32,000 bases of DNA. Origin: Pseudomonadota bacterium. Lineage in GTDB: Bacteria > Pseudomonadota > Gammaproteobacteria > Burkholderiales > Thiobacillaceae. Of this stretch, positions 7,402-27,212 are shown piece after piece. The notes beneath the pieces are model-generated. The model worked only from the letters and a program-made list of their open reading frames with translations, made no database searches and was not told the origin of the DNA. The stretch lies in NCBI GenBank assembly GCA_040754425.1, contig JBFMCR010000004.1, forward strand, positions 10,898 to 42,897, written 5' to 3'. The position numbers and the translations under genes were made by a program. Numbering within the stretch: position 1 is the stretch's first letter; every line of letters begins with the position of its first letter.

Positions 7402-7465
7402 TTCACAAGGAGGACAAGAGGACAGGAGTAAGTCATTCCTCTTGTCCTCATGTCCACTTTGTTCG
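7402..7465. repeat. Hairpin repeat, family A copy 3 (best-formed)
   Basis: ACAAGGAGGACAAGAGGACAGGAG (left) matches the reverse complement of CTCTTGTCCTCATGTCCACTTTGT (right) at 20/24 positions. The loop is about 4 nt. The element fills the amgK-murU gap. Confidence 0.75.
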
Positions 7466-9493: not shown

Positions 9494-9750
9494 TGGGGAT
9501 TAACCGCGGAGTTCGCGGAGGACGCAGGGGAAAACCATTGACACAGAGGAAGCAGAGGCAACAGAGTGGGAAAACCGTTTGAACGAAGAGGACGGGAGCG
9601 AGGGCAATGAGTCTATTCCTCCCTGTAAAAGAATGAATTCCTCTGTTACCTCTGCTTCCTCTGTGTCCTATCCCATGCCTGAGAAAATCCGTGCCCTCCG
9701 CCATGAGCGTTTTGGTTTACCCTCTTGCCCTCCTGTCCTCTTTGTGAAGT
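9494..9750. repeat. Composite intergenic repeat region with interleaved arms of four hairpin families
   Basis: C-left ACCGCGGAGTTCGCGGAGG (9503-9521). D-left ACACAGAGGAAGCAGAGGCAACAGAG (9541-9566) pairs with D-right 9637-9666 at 25/26. A-left GAACGAAGAGGACGGGAGCGAGGGCAA (9581-9607) pairs with A-right CCCTCTTGCCCTCCTGTCCTCTTTGTG (9720-9746). A B-type right-arm fragment ATTCCTCCCTGT sits at 9615-9626. The direct repeat GGGAAAACC(A/G)TTTGA precedes both the D and A left arms. Confidence 0.75.
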
Positions 9751-14997: not shown

Positions 14998-15087
14998 GTG
15001 GATCAGGGGAGTCTGTGGCTGTTGCTGGAAGCCGGCCTGGCGTTGGCGATTTTGCTGTTCATCGTGTGGTGGACGATGAAGAAGTGA
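14998..15087 (+). CDS. Putative 29-aa single-TM small protein (GTG start)
   Basis: GAGGAG SD (14984-14989) lies 8 nt before GTG 14998. The peptide is (M)DQGSLWLLLEAGLALAILLFIVWWTMKK, one hydrophobic helix with a KK tail, and stop TGA 15085-15087 abuts repeat E1. It is too short for the ORF track and I recognise no homolog. Confidence 0.3.
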   Translation: MDQGSLWLLLEAGLALAILLFIVWWTMKK

Positions 15088-15290
15088 GGGTTCAGGGTTC
15101 AGGATTCGGGATTCAGGGTACAGGATTCAGGGTACAGGATTCGGGATTCGGGATTCAGGATTCAGGATTCAGGATTCAGGATTCAGGGTTTGAGCTTCGC
15201 GCCTTGATTTGAAGTTTGCGGCCTCTGGCCGCACTTCCCTGTACCCTGTACCCTGTACCCTGTACCCTGAATCCTGAACCCTGAACCCTG
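15088..15290. repeat. Heptamer-array/core element, family E copy 1
   Basis: 14 in-phase tandem heptamers (GGGTTCA, GGATTC[A/G], GGGTACA; 15088-15185). Core GGGTTTGAGCTTCGCGCCTTGATTTGAAGTTTGCGGCCTCTGGCCGCACTTCC (15186-15236). About 7.5 complementary heptamers follow (CCCTGTA x4, CCCTGAA, TCCTGAA...; 15237-15290). The element fills the whole gap between two convergent stop codons. Confidence 0.9.
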
Positions 15291-15754: not shown

Positions 15755-15834
15755 GACAGGCAGATAAGTGAGGTAAGGGAGGATTGTTTATCGATAAGGC
15801 CGGCTCCCTGAACCTCCCGTTCCTCCCTGTGAAG
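15755..15834. repeat. Hairpin repeat, family B copy 1 (no cargo)
   Basis: Left arm GACAGGCAGATAAGTGAGGTAAGGGAGG and right arm CTCCCTGAACCTCCCGTTCCTCCCTGTGAAG. The right arm shares the 22-nt block AACCTCCCGTTCCTCCCTGTGA with copy B2. Confidence 0.75.
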
Positions 15835-16580: not shown

Positions 16581-16660
16581 GACAACAGGGAGGTTAAGAG
16601 AGGTAAGAGAGGAAAAACTCAAAAGCCATACTCCCTTAACCTCCCGTTCCTCCCTGTGAG
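16581..16660. repeat. Hairpin repeat, family B copy 2 (no cargo)
   Basis: Left arm GACAACAGGGAGGTTAAGAGAGGTAAGAGAGG and right arm CTCCCTTAACCTCCCGTTCCTCCCTGTGAG. It fills the rpe-gph gap and ends 4 nt before the gph ATG. Confidence 0.8.
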
Positions 16661-16664
16661 AATC

Positions 16665-17348
16665 ATGAATTTCCCGATCGATATCAAAGCCGTCGTCATC
16701 GACCTCGACGGCACCCTGCTGGACACTGCGCCCGATCTCGCGCGCGCGGCCGAATTGATGATGAACGAGCTGGGCATGCCCTGTCCGTCGCTCGACACCA
16801 TTCGCACCTACATCGGCAACGGCGTGTCGCGCCTGGTCAAGCGCGTGCTCACCGGCGACATGGATGCCGAGCCGGACGCCGGACTGTTCGCCCGTGCGCT
16901 GCCCATCTTCCAGAAGCATTACGGCGAGCACGTTTCCGAACGGTCGCGGCCTTTTCCGGGCGTGGTGGAAGGCCTGGAGGCTTTCAGGAAGATGGGCCTG
17001 CGCATCGCCTGCATCACCAACAAGGCCGAGCAGTTCACCCATCCGCTGCTGAAGGACACGGGGCTGTTCGGTTACTTCGATCTGATCCTGTCCGGCGACA
17101 CGCTGCCAAAGCGCAAGCCCGATCCGCTGCCGCTGCAACATGCCTGCAAGGTGTTCGGCGTGCAGCCGCGCGAGCTTTTGCTGATCGGCGATTCATGGAA
17201 CGACACCCAGGCCGCGCGCGCCGCCGGCTGCCCGGTATTCTGCGTGCCCTACGGCTACAACCGCGGCCGACCGGTGCAGGAGCTCGATGCGGACGCGCTG
17301 GTGCCGAGCCTGGCCGAAGCCGCGCAACTGCTCAAGAAGGCGGCATGA
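16665..17348 (+). CDS. gph: Phosphoglycolate phosphatase (HAD superfamily)
   Basis: MNFPIDIKAVVIDLDGTLLDT (DxDGT motif I), ...ITNK..., ...KPDP..., GDSWNDTQAARAAG (motif IV). The rpe-gph-trpE order is conserved in beta- and gammaproteobacteria. Confidence 0.88.
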   Translation: MNFPIDIKAVVIDLDGTLLDTAPDLARAAELMMNELGMPCPSLDTIRTYIGNGVSRLVKRVLTGDMDAEPDAGLFARALPIFQKHYGEHVSERSRPFPGVVEGLEAFRKMGLRIACITNKAEQFTHPLLKDTGLFGYFDLILSGDTLPKRKPDPLPLQHACKVFGVQPRELLLIGDSWNDTQAARAAGCPVFCVPYGYNRGRPVQELDADALVPSLAEAAQLLKKAA

Positions 17349-17361
17349 TTCTCGGGGGCCA

Positions 17362-17475
17362 GGATTCAGGATTCAGGATTCAGGGTTTGAACTTCGCGCC
17401 TTGATTTGAAGTTTGCGGCCTCTGGCCGCACTTCCCTGTACCCTGTACCCTGAATCCTGACCCCTGACCCCTGAA
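17362..17475. repeat. Heptamer-array/core element, family E copy 2
   Basis: GGATTCA x3, then core GGGTTTGAACTTCGCGCCTTGATTTGAAGTTTGCGGCCTCTGGCCGCACTTCC (1 mismatch to E1), then 6 complementary heptamers (CCCTGTA x2, CCCTGAA, TCCTGAC, CCCTGAC, CCCTGAA). It ends 1 nt before the trpE ATG. Confidence 0.9.
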
Positions 17476-17476
17476 A

Positions 17477-18943
17477 ATGACTGAAACCGAATTCAACGAC
17501 CTTGCCCGCCACGGCTACAACCGCATCCCGCTTACGCTGGAGATGCCGGCCGACCTCGACACGCCGCTCGCGCTCTACCTCAAGCTTGCCAACGCCCCCT
17601 ATAGCTGCCTGCTGGAATCGGTGGTGGGCGGCGAGCGCTTCGGCCGCTATTCCATCATCGGCCTGCCGGCGCGCACACTGATCCGTGTGCGCCATCACAC
17701 CCTGACCGTGGAGCAGGACGGCGAGATCATGGAGGAATACGAGACCGCCGATCCGCTGGCGTTCATCGAGCAATACCTCGTCCGTTTCAAGGCCGCGCCG
17801 CTCGCGGGCGGCCCGCGCTTTGCCGGCGGGCTGGCCGGCTATTTCGGCTACGACACCATCCGCTACATCGAAAAGCGCCTGGCCAAAGATTTTGATAAGG
17901 CCCGGCCCAGGAAGCCCGACGAAATCAACGCGCCGGACATTCTGCTCATGCTCACCGACGAACTCGCGGTGGTGGACAACCTCTCCGGGCGGCTCACCCT
18001 CATCGTCTATACCGACCCCATGCAGCCCGGCGCCTATGAGGCGTCGCTCGCGCGCCTGAACGCCCACCGCGAGCGGCTGCAATCGCCGCTGACGCCTCCG
18101 AAAGCGCAGGCGGTTGCCGAAGCCGAGGCGGTGTCCGAATTCGGCGAAGACGCCTTCAAGGCCGCCGTGCTCAAGGCCAAGCAGTACATCCGTGACGGCG
18201 ACATCATGCAGGTGGTGTTGTCCCAGCGCATGCGCCGGCCGTTCGCGGCGAGCCCGTTGACACTCTACCGCGCCCTGCGCTCGCTCAACCCCTCGCCCTA
18301 CATGTTCTATTACGACATGGGCAACCACCACGTGGTCGGCTCCTCGCCCGAGATCCTGGTGCGGCGCGAAGGCGACACCGTCACCGTGCGGCCGATCGCC
18401 GGCACGCGACCGCGCGGCCGTGACCGCGAGCACGACCTCGCCCTGGAAAAGGAATTGCTGGCCGACCCCAAGGAATGCGCCGAGCATTTGCAACTGCTGG
18501 ACCTCGGCCGCAACGATCTCGGCCGCGTGGCCCGGATTGGTTCGGTCAGGGTCACAGAGAACATGAGCATAGAGCGCTATTCGCACGTCATGCACATCGT
18601 CTCCAACGTCGAAGGCAGGCTCAGGCCGGGCTTGAGTTCCATGGACGTGCTGCGCGCCACCTTCCCCGCCGGCACCGTGTCCGGCGCGCCCAAGGTGCGC
18701 GCCATGGAAATCATCGACGAACTGGAACCCGTAAAGCGCGGCATCTACGCCGGCGCGGTCGGCTACCTGGGCTTCGACGGCGACATGGATCTCGCCATCG
18801 CCATCCGCACCGCGGTGGTCAAGGACGGCACCCTGTACGTGCAGGCCGGCGCCGGCATCGTCGCCGACTCGGTGCCGGAAAACGAATGGGAAGAAACCCG
18901 CAACAAGGCGCGCGCCGTGGTGCGCGCGGCGGAGTTGTCATAG
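17477..18943 (+). CDS. trpE: Anthranilate synthase component I
   Basis: 488 aa with GYNRIPL...[13 protein letters not shown]-terminus, LESV Trp-feedback motif, and the chorismate-binding core ([25 protein letters not shown]...AGAGIVADS). Confidence 0.95.
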
Positions 18944-19113
18944 GGTACAGGGTACAGGGTACAGGGTTTGAGCTTCGCGCCTTGATTTGAAATTAATTTG
19001 AGAACTTGCCGCCTCTGACCGCACCTCCCCCGAATCCCGAATCCCGAACCCTGAATCCTGAATCCTGAACCCTGTACCCCGAATCCTGAACCCTGTACCC
19101 CGAATCCCGACCC
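18943..19113. repeat. Heptamer-array/core element, family E copy 3
   Basis: GGGTACA x3, then a core carrying a 13-nt internal insertion (…TTGATTTGAAattaatttgagaaCTTGCCGCCTCTGACCGCACCTCCC), then 12 complementary heptamers (TCCCGAA, CCCTGAA, TCCTGAA, CCCTGTA variants). It spans exactly from the trpE stop to the stop of the convergent regulator gene. Confidence 0.88.
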
Positions 19114-24338: not shown

Positions 24339-24908
24339 ATGCTTTTGATGATCGACAACTACGACAGCTTCACCTACAACCTCGTGCAGTATTTCGGCGA
24401 GCTAGGCGAAGACGTGAAGGTGGTGCGCAACGACGAGATCGACCTCGCCGGCGTGGCGGCCATGAAGCCCGACCACATCGTCATCTCGCCCGGACCCTGC
24501 ACGCCCAATGAAGCGGGTATTTCCGTGCCGCTGATCAAGGCATTCGCCGGCAAGGTGCCGCTTTTGGGTGTGTGTCTGGGCCACCAGAGCATCGGCCAGG
24601 CCTTTGGCGGCAGCATCGTGCACGCGAAGGAACTCATGCACGGCAAGACCTCGATGATCCACCACAAGGGCGTCGGCGTGTTCCGTGGCCTGCCCAATCC
24701 CTTCCGCGCCACGCGTTACCACTCGCTGGTGATCGAGCGCGAGTCACTGCCCGACTGCCTCGAGATCACCGCCTGGACCGACGACGATGAGATCATGGGC
24801 GTGCGCCACAAGGAGCTGGCAGTCGAAGGCGTGCAATTCCACCCCGAATCCATCCTCACCGAACACGGCCATGCCATGCTGGCCAATTTCCTGAAGGGGG
24901 CGCGATGA
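24339..24908 (+). CDS. trpG: Anthranilate synthase component II (glutamine amidotransferase)
   Basis: [19 protein letters not shown]..., the GVCLGHQ catalytic Cys motif, and VQFHPES. ATGA overlap with trpD. Confidence 0.93.
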
Positions 24909-25924
24909 TCAGCGTGCAGCAGGCGCTCGCCCGTCTGGTCGAGCAGCGCGAAATCTTCCACGACGAAATGCTCTCGCTCATGCGCCGGATCATGAGCGGC
25001 GAACTCACGCCCGCGCAGATCGCCGCCATCGTCATGGGCCTCAGGGTGAAGAAGGAAACCGTGGGCGAGATCGCCGCCGCGGCCCAGGTCATGCGCGAAT
25101 TCGCGGCCAAAGTGCCGATGGCGAATGACGCCAACCTCGTTGACACCTGCGGCACCGGCGGCGACGCCAGCCATACCTTCAACATCTCCACCGCCTCCGC
25201 CTTCGTCGCCGCCGCGGCCGGCGCGCGTGTGGCCAAGCACGGCGGCCGGTCAGTATCTTCCACTACCGGCAGCGCCGACGTGCTGGAAGCCCTGGGCGTG
25301 AACCTCAACCTCACGCCCGAGCAGGTGGGCGCAAGCCTCGACCAGGTCGGCATCGGCTTCATGTTCGCACCCAACTTTCACGCCGCCATGAAGCACGCCG
25401 CGCCGGTACGCAAGGAACTGGGTGTGAGGACGCTCTTCAACATCCTCGGCCCGCTCACCAACCCGGCGGGCGCGCCGCACCAGCTTTTGGGCGTGTTCCA
25501 CCCCGACTTGGTCGGCATCCTGGTGCGCGTGCTGCAGCGCCTCGGCAGCCGTCATGTCATGGTGGTGCATGGCGCCGACGGCATGGACGAGATCACGCTC
25601 ACCGGTGAAACCCTGGTGGGCGAACTCAAGGATGGCGAGGTCTGCGAATACACCATCCATCCGCGCGAGTTCGGTATCGAGGCAGCCGGCATCGAGTCGC
25701 TCAAGGTCTGGGATGCGCAGCAGTCGAAAGACATGCTGCTTTCCGTGCTTGACGGACTGCCCGGCCCCGCGCGCGACATCGTGCTGCTCAATGCCGGTGC
25801 CGCCATCTACGTGTCCGACTGCGCCGCCACCCTGGGCGAAGGCATCGAAAAAGCCCGCAAAGCCATCGACAGCGGCGAGGCGCGGGCGAAACTTGCCGAG
25901 TACGTCAAATACAGCAACCAATAA
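24905..25924 (+). CDS. trpD: Anthranilate phosphoribosyltransferase
   Basis: 339 aa with [36 protein letters not shown] and [11 protein letters not shown] motifs. Confidence 0.95.
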
Positions 25925-26361
25925 ACAGGGAGGTAAGGGAGGGAATGGAGGAAAGCCTTCGTTATCTGGGCGAACAAATCATCGGTGCCGCGATGCGGGT
26001 GCATACGGCTCTTGGCCCCGGCATGCTGGAGAGTGCATACGAAGTCTGTCTGCACCATGAATTATCCAAATCCGGACTGCGTGTGGCACGTCAAGTCGAT
26101 TTGCCCATCGAATACGACGGGTTGAAAATGGATTCCGGCTATCGGCTTGATCTGGTAGTGGATGACTGTGTGGTGCTTGAATTGAAGGCAGTGGATAAGC
26201 TCACTCCCCTGCATACAGCTCAGTTGATAAGCTATTTAAGGCTTGGGCAGTACCCTGTTGGATATTTGCTCAACTTCAACGTCGTTCACATGAGGGATGG
26301 TATTCGGCGAATCTTGAACAAGCATTTGAATTAACCTCCCGCGCCTCCCATTCCTCCCTGT
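25925..26361 (+). mobile_element. 437-bp inverted-repeat-bounded cassette carrying the GxxExxY gene (family B copy 3, cargo-bearing)
   Basis: Arms ACAGGGAGGTAAGGGAGGGAATGGAGG (25925-25951) and CCTCCCGCGCCTCCCATTCCTCCCTGT (26335-26361) are 21/27 complementary. The ORF start and stop codons lie inside the arms. GC is lower than in the flanks. The same arm types occur without cargo at 15755-15834 and 16581-16660. Mobility is inferred, not shown. Confidence 0.45.
25945..26334 (+). CDS. GxxExxY protein (PD-(D/E)XK nuclease-like, PDDEXK_3 type)
   Basis: 129 aa with a GMLESAY motif near the N-terminus and D...ELK ([16 protein letters not shown]) as in PD-(D/E)XK folds. A/T-ending codons (TTA, AAA, TAT, ATT) are unlike the neighbouring trp genes. 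Confidence 0.85.
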
Positions 26362-26372
26362 TAATAAGAGTT

Positions 26373-27212
26373 ATGTCCGACATTCTCAATAAAATCCTCG
26401 CCACCAAGCGCGAGGAGATCGAAGCCGGCCTGAAAGAGGTCTCGCTTGCAAAAATGCAGGCGCTTGCCAAGGCGCAGCCGCCTGCGCGCGATTTCGTCGG
26501 CGCCATTCGCGCCAAAATCGCCGCCGGCAAGCCGGCCGTCATCGCCGAAATCAAGAAGGCCAGCCCCAGCAAAGGCGTACTGCGTGAGGATTTTCGGCCG
26601 GCCGAAATCGCCAAGAGCTACGAGGCGGGCGGTGCTGCCTGTTTGTCAGTGCTCACTGATAAACAATATTTCCAGGGCAGCGCCGAATACCTCCAGCAGG
26701 CGCGCGCAGCCTGTTCGCTGCCGGTGCTGCGCAAAGACTTCATCATCGACCCCTACCAGGTCTATGAAGCCCGTGCCATGGGCGCGGACTGCATCCTGTT
26801 AATCGTGGCGGCGTTTTCGCTCCCCTCTCCCCAGGGGAGAGGGGCTGGGGGTGAGGGCGCGGTGTTTGATATCCCCACCATGCGCGCACTTGAAGCCCTG
26901 GCTTTCGAGCTGGGCATGGCCGTGCTGGTGGAGTCCCACAACGCCGAAGAACTCGACGCCGCGCTACAGTTGAAAACCCCGCTGCAGGGCATCAACAACC
27001 GCAACTTGCGTACCTTTGAGGTCAGCCTCGATATCACGCTGGGACTTTTGCCCAAAATTGGTGCCAATCGCATTGTCATTACCGAGTCGGGCATTCTTGC
27101 ACCGGCCGATGTGGCTCGCATGCGCGCCCATGACGTCCAGGCCTTTCTGGTCGGTGAGGCTTTTATGCGCGCCGACAACCCTGGAGAAGCGCTAACGTGG
27201 CTTTTCGCCTAA
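26373..27212 (+). CDS. trpC: Indole-3-glycerol-phosphate synthase (with an 18-aa in-frame insertion)
   Basis: 279 aa with [38 protein letters not shown] and ESGI motifs. The extra segment [18 protein letters not shown] is absent from E. coli TrpC at the aligned position. Confidence 0.92.
26814..26867. repeat. GC-rich palindromic (REP-like) repeat inserted in frame within trpC
   Basis: CCCCTCTCCCC-a-GGGGAGAGGGG is a perfect 11-bp stem (26822-26844), followed by GCTGGGGGTGAGGG. It is flanked by the imperfect direct repeat GCGGCGTTT (26808-26816) / GCGGTGTTT (26859-26867). The length is 54 nt, i.e. 18 codons. Confidence 0.65.

Follow-up and report, generated by a model that had tools for sequence, protein, structure and literature searches.

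A GxxExxY nuclease-fold gene enclosed by inverted tandem-unit arms between trpD and trpC, and its relation to dispersed cargo-less hairpins

We analysed a window of 32,000 nucleotides from a Pseudomonadota bacterium of the Thiobacillaceae (assembly GCA_040754425.1, contig JBFMCR010000004.1, positions 10,898 to 42,897 of the forward strand); positions below count from its first letter. Our subject is the gap between trpD and trpC, which is filled by a short open reading frame (ORF) for a GxxExxY protein, bracketed by two inverted arms (Table 1). The cassette, at 25925-26361, is one discrete unit in sense orientation within the trpGDC operon, and brings neither a promoter nor a terminator with it. 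A sequence-only reading of this DNA had already placed the end of trpD, the start of trpC and the 129-aa ORF between them, and had described arms with 21 of 27 positions complementary and a lower GC content of the ORF. The genes were confirmed by the ORF list, Pfam and TIGR04256, the arms by a hand count and a repeat finder, and the GC content is 0.46-0.52 for the ORF versus 0.62-0.69 for its flanks. The repeat finder stretches the arms to 31 nt at 77% complementarity (25921-25951 / 26335-26365), so that a TAA/TTA at either end is included, and the TAA stop codon of trpD (25922-25924) falls within this extended inverted repeat. The left arm contains a Shine–Dalgarno (SD)-like GGGAGG at 25937-25942, and the ORF start codon (25945-25947) lies within its third unit, as had been stated. 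The stop codon, which had been placed inside the right arm, instead abuts it (26332-26334): the right arm begins straight after the stop and ends 11 nt upstream of the trpC ATG. The cassette ends are a tight fit between the trpD stop and the trpC start. The window belongs to a Thiobacillus-like betaproteobacterium; its TrpD is 90% identical to that of SCN2 and 82-86% identical to those of Thiobacillus spp.

Table 1. Positions in the window of the cassette, its host genes and the cargo-less hairpins.
Feature	Position	Strand	Details
trpD (anthranilate phosphoribosyltransferase), upstream host gene	24905..25924	+	ORF list, TrpD homologues
Left arm, three 9-nt purine-rich units ACAGGGAGG TAAGGGAGG GAATGGAGG	25925..25951	+	9-nt period at 25927-25955
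129-aa GxxExxY gene (PD-(D/E)XK fold)	25945..26334	+	Pfam, NCBIfam
Right arm, three 9-nt pyrimidine-rich units CCTCCCGCG CCTCCCATT CCTCCCTGT	26335..26361	+	complementary to left arm
trpC (indole-3-glycerol-phosphate synthase), downstream host gene	26373..27212	+	Pfam IGPS E 3e-90
Cargo-less hairpin, GGAGG-type, between rpe and gph	16581..16660		RNA fold z -3.7 (+), -4.3 (-)
Degenerate cargo-less hairpin, GGAGG-type, upstream of rpe	15755..15834		17 Watson–Crick pairs of 27; RNA fold z -1.5
Cargo-less hairpin, second arm type (ACAGAGGAAG units)	9540..9667		27-nt arms, 96% complementary; RNA fold z -6.75

The ORF product matches Pfam PF13366 (PDDEXK_3) with an E value of 2e-42 and 144.6 bits, against a cut-off of 22, and TIGR04256 (GxxExxY) with an E value of 7e-42 and 142.6 bits, against a cut-off of 35. 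The motif residues G26, E29 and Y32 are invariant in 18 homologues, as are the putative catalytic residues D69, E79 and K81, which make up a D ... ExK signature. The AlphaFold2 model of the protein is confident (pLDDT 93). Foldseek comparison with the PDB gave weak matches only, to lambda exonuclease, Cas4 and tRNA-splicing endonuclease (E >= 0.01, TM < 0.5), and a sequence search of the PDB with the same protein returned nothing meaningful. The PADLOC and PHROGs models gave zero matches for it, and no relatives were found in viral contigs or phage genomes.

The ratio of nonsynonymous to synonymous changes (dN/dS) in the ORF is 0.046 between the window and L113, and 0.08 between the window and L114 (relatives are cited by L numbers). 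These values are as low as those of trpD and trpC, and by this measure the ORF is under purifying selection. The left arm is identical at 26 of 27 positions between the window and L119, while the synonymous sites of the ORF are saturated (67% nucleotide identity). The comparisons indicate that protein and arms are both kept by selection. The PF13366/TIGR04256 family, which is listed just as 'unknown' (PMC3424549), comprises 19,746 clusters at 50% identity (E <= 1e-3). One subfamily (P0241-P0251 and others) consists of proteins of 265-295 aa with two tandem GxxExxY-like domains, the second of which carries GPGLLxSAY.

Metagenome contigs searched with a GxxExxY homologue alignment supplied at least 80 loci (55-80% identity); with relatives from an exact protein look-up added, 88 loci were assessed. 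Flanking inverted arms were accepted above the 99th percentile of shuffled flanks, and 77 of the 88 loci passed this threshold. Arms are also present at three of five plasmid-borne GxxExxY genes from other phyla (Bacteroidota and Alphaproteobacteria), and an association of other GxxExxY genes with arms, which the sequence-only reading had named as a check, was found. Examples with arms include the layouts radA-[GxxExxY]-FAD protein in Bacteroides finegoldii, ade-[GxxExxY]-manC in Bernardetia and fabD-[GxxExxY]-fabG in Sphingomonas. The arm sequences are lineage-specific (CGCAGAGGAC, CACGAAGGAC, CGCCAAGGAC, ACAGAGGTA and GGGAGGTAA) and the layout is constant: medians over the loci are 31 nt for the arm, 390 nt for the loop and 4 nt for the distance from the stop codon to the right arm, with a 9-nt period in 48 of 62 distinct arms. 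SD-like cores occur in 49 of 62 distinct left arms, the last unit standing just ahead of the start codon in most loci. The ORF runs into or through the right arm in 21/68 loci, and in L120 and several others both arms are translated as part of it. Tails that resemble translated arms (TEDTE, QRTQRTQR, PLRPLR and SSASSA) are common among family representatives.

The ORF lies inside one hairpin in 70 of the 77 arm-bearing loci; at L137, L177, L175 and in Gemmatirosa it lies between two complete hairpins instead. When every locus was scanned blindly for ORFs of 70-300 aa enclosed by a purine arm and then a pyrimidine arm, GxxExxY genes were the only class recovered, the other matches being antisense artefacts or housekeeping genes between two separate hairpins. 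As far as these loci represent it, the enclosing-arm architecture is a property of the whole GxxExxY protein family. Since the layout recurs across bacterial phyla, the family appears to be tied to a class of mobile hairpin DNA.

How cargo-less hairpins are oriented relative to genes was dropped as evidence. A purine-then-pyrimidine hairpin reads purine-first on both strands, so polarity says nothing about transcription, and a count such as "70 of 77 with the purine arm upstream" describes the hairpin class and not the orientation of the ORF. Separately, the 60-nt arms at L204 (1421-1480 / 1904-1963) and at L160 (1914-2204) hold a 28-nt non-repeat segment, ATTCTTTTCAATACCCCCTTGAGGGGTA, which is found in both arms in complementary form and suggests either arm-to-arm copying or a palindromic element inserted in both.

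A cassette occurs at the trpD-trpC junction in at least 25 distinct lineages, always in sense orientation, with TrpD identities to the window from 48% to 92%. Empty sites among relatives, proposed earlier as a check, exist in Thiobacillus denitrificans and T. sedimenti (TrpD 84-85% identical), where the junction reads TGA, 5 nt, ATG with no hairpin. Three loci whose TrpD is 90-92% identical to that of the window carry an ORF of 97-99% identity (98% by BLASTP) with GGAGG arms (L113), an ORF of 70% identity (72% by BLASTP) with CGCAGAG arms (L213) and an ORF of 66% identity (66% by BLASTP) with ACACAGAGG arms (L212). L119 and L120 have TrpD just 58-60% identical to the window's, yet GGAGG arms and ORFs 73-78% identical.

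In a comparison of 20 cassettes from the trp site, arm similarity rises with ORF identity (Spearman 0.50, Mantel p 0.0005); it is not correlated with TrpC, which starts 10-40 nt beyond the arm (-0.08, p 0.78). The two arms of a lineage pair at 91% Watson–Crick positions versus 39% for permuted partners, and the observed value was reached in 0/2000 permutations. Therefore, arms and ORF form one inheritance unit with boundaries at the outer arm ends. TrpC served as the host marker because two TrpD types confound TrpD. The cassette, on these comparisons, is present or absent at orthologous sites and is exchanged horizontally between lineages as arms plus ORF. In L212 a second cassette, with its own different arms, lies between trpE and trpG, and the two ORFs sit on widely separated branches of a neighbour-joining tree. 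That tree has shallow clustering by site and distributes trp-site ORFs over several clades; it is too poorly resolved to count independent insertions.

The two TrpD types, ~60% identical, divide the Thiobacillus-like genomes into L119, L120, L206 and L208 on one side and the window, L113, L212, L213, L214 and L218 on the other, with TrpC N-terminal regions 77-93% identical to the window's. This points to xenologous trpD replacement within the operon. L206 (10380-10600) bears what looks like a recombination scar of cassette insertion or replacement: immediately ahead of its genuine trpC there is an extra copy of the 3' end of the ORF, of the right arm and of the opening ~105 nt of trpC.

The two GGAGG-type cargo-less copies next to rpe (Table 1) had been described before, and their 22-nt common block, AACCTCCCGTTCCTCCCTGTGA, was found again; their loop is ~20 nt. 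The GGAGG-type right-arm fragment reported at 9615-9626 is also present, and it sits in the loop of the hairpin with the second arm type, whose left arm closely resembles the left arm of the trpD-trpC cassette in L208. With up to 3 mismatches, the motif CCTCCCNTTCCTCCCTGT has 4 matches in the window versus 0.12 expected, a number reached in 0/100 shuffles, so the similarity between the arms and the cargo-less copies rises far above a shuffled background. In a scan of species-representative genomes, the exact motif was concentrated in metagenome-assembled genomes of Thiobacillus/Hydrogenophilales (UBA2186, UBA6205, W21, SCN2 and others), and all 19 such matches are intergenic hairpins of 61-81 bp without cargo. 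The copy between rpe and gph recurs identically, loop included, in Thiobacillus sp. UBA2186 (L074), where the flanking genes are ~91% identical. At Rfam gathering thresholds no family was found anywhere in the window.

The cargo-less copies form genus-wide families with subfamilies that have uncompensated arm mismatches in common; inherited A:C mismatches are among them, such as TTAAGAGAGG opposite CCTCCC, which five copies of two species have. At orthologous junctions of genomes with ~90% identical TrpD, hairpins differ in type and come and go, and nested hairpin insertions were found. Two megaplasmids of Gemmatirosa hold at least 79 hairpins versus a single gene copy, which is flanked by two complete hairpins. 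The arms of the Sphingomonas cassette recur about 12 times, in Sphingomonas and Sphingopyxis only. Judged by this distribution, the cargo-less hairpins behave as mobile DNA, that is, as DNA-level replicators. In the window, L208, L212, Sphingomonas and Gemmatirosa, cargo-less copies close by have arms that match those of the cassette. The Gemmatirosa gene itself (L219, 1443-1853) is apparently frameshifted, being recovered by tblastn as two pieces with the N-terminal part out of frame; the two hairpins beside it nevertheless have perfect 35-nt arms.

Hairpins of other kinds also occur in the window. A third cargo-less arm type, with ACAAGAGGAC units, lies at 7405-7455. Hairpins at 15087-15290, 17348-17478 and 18942-19110 have arms built from a tandemly repeated 7-nt unit (CAGGATT / CAGGGTA, up to 14 copies), and the arms enclose a conserved core of ~55 nt, GGGTTTGAGCTTCGCGCCTTGATTTGAAGTTTGCGGCCTCTGGCCGCAC. 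They lie near 15.1 kb, at the gph/trpE junction and after trpE, with no associated ORF in the window.

The abundance of hairpins in this region raises the question of whether gene and arms are linked in function at all. Hairpins and small dispensable genes might gather at the same permissive intergenic sites, with the arms as neutral relics or recombination duplicates. In the window genome, nearly all junctions in the rpe-gph-trpE...trpGDC region have a hairpin, and housekeeping genes such as trpC and nuoJ can be hairpin-flanked too. However, those genes lie between two complete hairpins, with a pyrimidine arm upstream and a purine arm downstream, and not inside a single hairpin as most GxxExxY ORFs do. 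The near-identity of arms over saturating divergence, the correlation of arm similarity with ORF identity and the recurrence of the architecture across phyla also argue against coincidence. This explanation is strongly disfavoured, and we regard it as very improbable.

We give a probability of about 0.5 to the reading that the cassette is a horizontally exchanged unit of nuclease plus arms in which the arms serve as recognition sites of the protein. The analogy is with REPINs and the REP-associated (repetitive extragenic palindromic sequence-associated) tyrosine transposases, or RAYTs (Bertels & Rainey, PMC3116915, PMC3337134), or with insertion sequences (IS) and miniature inverted-repeat transposable elements (MITEs). 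The tandem 9-nt units of the arms would be what the encoded protein recognises. Its substrate may be duplex arm DNA, as with terminal inverted repeats, or the hairpin into which the short copies fold. By acting there, the protein would maintain or spread the cassette itself and also, in trans, the cargo-less hairpins, which are far more numerous; RAYT transposases stand in this relation to REPINs, and insertion sequences to MITEs. Pairing of the arms within the operon mRNA is a likely secondary effect, which would loop out the ORF and cover its ribosome-binding site. Such pairing would draw the trpD stop near the trpC start and keep the insertion cheap for the host.

Several results weigh against this proposal. 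Near-identical ORF-bearing copies at different sites in one genome were not seen in the sequences examined. The sequence-only reading had pictured an autonomous element with MITE-like derivatives; the cargo-less relatives are there, no ORF-bearing copies with the same arms were seen at other sites of one genome, and autonomy is a conjecture. The ORFs closest to that of the window (99-73% identical) are all at trpD-trpC, a pattern that vertical descent plus allelic exchange fits as well as transposition. No consistent direct repeat flanks 20 cargo-less copies and the trp cassettes, and no target-site duplication is evident; the TAA flanks, earlier taken for a possible one, belong as TAA/TTA to an extension of the inverted repeat. 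Genomes of the SCN2 type have GGAGG-type hairpins but a CGCAGAG-type trp cassette. A test for same-locus matching of arms to hairpins showed nothing, with few hairpins and widely shared units leaving it underpowered. A 390-nt loop hardly permits the arms to form a DNA hairpin, and therefore recognition would need duplex DNA. The structural matches of the modelled protein are weak and generic to the PD-(D/E)XK fold, and open-access papers and bioRxiv report no nuclease, binding or transposition activity for any family member.

It is also possible that the element works at the RNA level, as had been proposed alongside the mobile-element idea. The arms would then form a long stem in the operon transcript that sequesters the SD and AUG of the ORF, by pairing of purine units with anti-SD-like CCUCC units. 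RNase III may cut this stem, excising or insulating the ORF and preserving trpD-trpC expression. The minimum free energy and centroid folds of 25915-26372 both close a long-range stem, and because of this the RNA alternative has to be weighed. The SD-like cores of the left arms would suit it, as would the position of the cassettes, which are in sense within operons and show promoter and terminator signals no stronger than chance would give. Their size and layout are also like those of the 428-nt intervening sequence (IVS) of Coxiella, which is excised by RNase III (PMC4990558).

The fold prediction is the part of this proposal that stood; specific support for an RNA function did not emerge. 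Among sense-strand arm mismatches G:U is not in excess over A:C (90 vs 71, p 0.16), and A:C mismatches are inherited, as described above. The coding strand of the cargo-less copy between rpe and gph contains A:C mismatches, and its antisense gives the better fold. The translation of both arms within the ORF, as in L120, also counts against an RNA stem. Bacteroidota rarely use SD-led initiation. The units are conserved in that phylum and there is no wobble bias, which argues that the constraint is neither on an RNA stem nor on SD function. An RNA mechanism also leaves unexplained why cargo-less copies are dispersed across the genome in settings that are non-transcribed or divergent, and why they form subfamilies. 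We consider it unlikely as the primary explanation.

A second small endonuclease family bears on a further alternative. Within trpC of the window, at 26826-26880, there is an in-frame GC-rich palindromic repeat, ctcccctctccccaggggagaggggctgggggtgaggg, which is translated and falls in a surface loop. At the same trpC site, L113 (3380-3900) has an in-frame DUF559 (Vsr-like endonuclease) domain of ~150 aa bracketed by the ctcccctctccccaggggagaggggctgggggtgaggg repeat, and Pfam recognises IGPS plus DUF559 in this protein (E value 1.7e-38). DUF559 is a second case of cargo-bearing and cargo-less forms of one repeat at one site, here inside coding sequence, and resembles the Rickettsia palindromic elements in this. 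Free-standing DUF559 genes lie between trpG and trpD in L119 (1072-1464) and L201 (76-459); they have a GC-rich palindrome before them and at their end (tail ...SPSPLKGEG), and their stop codon overlaps the trpD start.

This parallel could fit hairpins that spread by other means, and a parasitic or free-standing homing endonuclease gene that targets hairpin loops or conserved intergenic junctions. The gene would copy itself in by break repair, and the arms would be a landing pad and homology only. The presence/absence polymorphism between conserved genes, the incongruence of cassette phylogeny with the flanks, the scar in L206 and the exact filling of the loop by the ORF are all in keeping with this, and so is the occurrence of DUF559 in a different palindromic repeat where the window has an empty one. 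The PD-(D/E)XK fold has a homing-endonuclease precedent in I-Ssp6803I. However, an ORF was present in 0/21 GGAGG-type elements examined outside the trp site, and arm type covaries with ORF clade. GxxExxY genes were found only in hairpins of purine/pyrimidine tandem units and DUF559 genes only in GC-rich palindromes; each family being confined to its own repeat type, the association is type-specific and not opportunistic. We judge homing of this kind quite unlikely.

Homing genes also offer a direct comparison. The seg and mob genes of phage T4 are free-standing homing endonuclease genes: small nuclease genes between conserved genes, present or absent among relatives, with a phylogeny decoupled from that of their flanks and expression signals embedded in secondary structure. 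The cassette resembles them in each of these respects. Unlike the cassette, they are not enclosed by inverted arms and have no family of cargo-less repeats beside them, and for GxxExxY the nuclease role is itself a prediction.

Returning to the recognition-site proposal, the cassette is not a member of the RAYT/REPIN or the IS/MITE families. As with RAYTs, inverted copies of a repeat stand on both sides of the gene, many short, hairpin-forming, non-autonomous copies of that repeat are dispersed between genes of the same genome, there are few gene copies versus many hairpins (Gemmatirosa, 1 to at least 79) and the repeat families are lineage-specific. The enzyme differs, being a PD-(D/E)XK-fold protein of ~125 aa, with PF13366 as its sole Pfam match, and not an HUH/Y1 (IS200/IS605-like) transposase. 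The arms are tandem 9-nt purine or pyrimidine units and not palindromic REPs with a GTAG head. Furthermore, a single hairpin inside a host operon is the usual place of the GxxExxY gene, and the cassette is exchanged horizontally at a fixed site. Terminal inverted arms around a single gene, cargo-less derivatives with the same arms, nested insertions and copy subfamilies consistent with descent from master copies are features in common with IS/MITE systems. Unlike those systems, the cassette has no recognised transposase family, no target-site duplication and no multiple identical autonomous copies among those seen, and at ~440 bp it would be smaller than any known autonomous IS.

The ORF-bearing IVSs of 23S rRNA in Coxiella and Leptospira, which are treated as selfish, horizontally acquired elements (PMC4990558), are similar in size (~430 nt), in having inverted ends that form a stem, in the small ORF that fills the loop and in residing in a host transcript. 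The host here is an mRNA operon and not helix 25 or 45 of 23S rRNA, the window has no Rfam match, and the ORF belongs to PF13366 and not to the S23p four-helix-bundle family. The strong purifying selection on the cassette ORF also contrasts with the decaying ORF of the Coxiella IVS (PMC4990558). The cargo-less copies, for their part, resemble the Correia repeat-enclosed elements of Neisseria (PMC2649163), which are short and intergenic, have inverted ends of ~26 nt, are co-transcribed with their neighbours and form RNA hairpins; the copies described here are likewise short, intergenic and capable of forming RNA hairpins from inverted ends. However, the two are unrelated in sequence, no cargo-bearing partner is known for Correia elements, and their TA duplication and integration host factor (IHF) site were not seen here.

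A real link joins this nuclease-fold family to a family of hairpin repeats, as the sequence-only reading had raised as something potentially new, and open-access papers and bioRxiv do not describe a repeat association for GxxExxY, PF13366, TIGR04256, TIGR02436 or DUF559. We tentatively extend it to a broader proposal, which we hold to be possible but on balance doubtful: bacterial hairpin repeats whose arms are tandem 9-nt purine/pyrimidine units may be a large class that has gone unrecognised, with GxxExxY proteins as its trans-acting enzymes. They would make up a second system, based on a PD-(D/E)XK nuclease and mechanistically independent of RAYT/REPIN. If this is true, no self-contained mobile unit smaller than the ~440-bp cassette would be known in bacteria, and the cassette would be adapted to operon interiors. 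If the protein recognises the units, it would represent a compact nuclease, specific for sequence or structure, whose specificities have diversified in nature. The conserved layout provides the first testable functional context for the very large PF13366/TIGR04256 family. It also accounts for the widespread purine-rich tandem-repeat hairpins in intergenic DNA, for the odd N- and C-terminal tails on database entries noted above and for insertions in conserved operons such as trp, nuo and fab.

The trp operon has received at least one insertion of another kind. In one Thiobacillus lineage, a gene with a metallo-beta-lactamase fold lies between trpG and trpD (L208, 8023-8952; also L209-L211), and its Pfam matches include the anti-Pycsar protein Apyc1.

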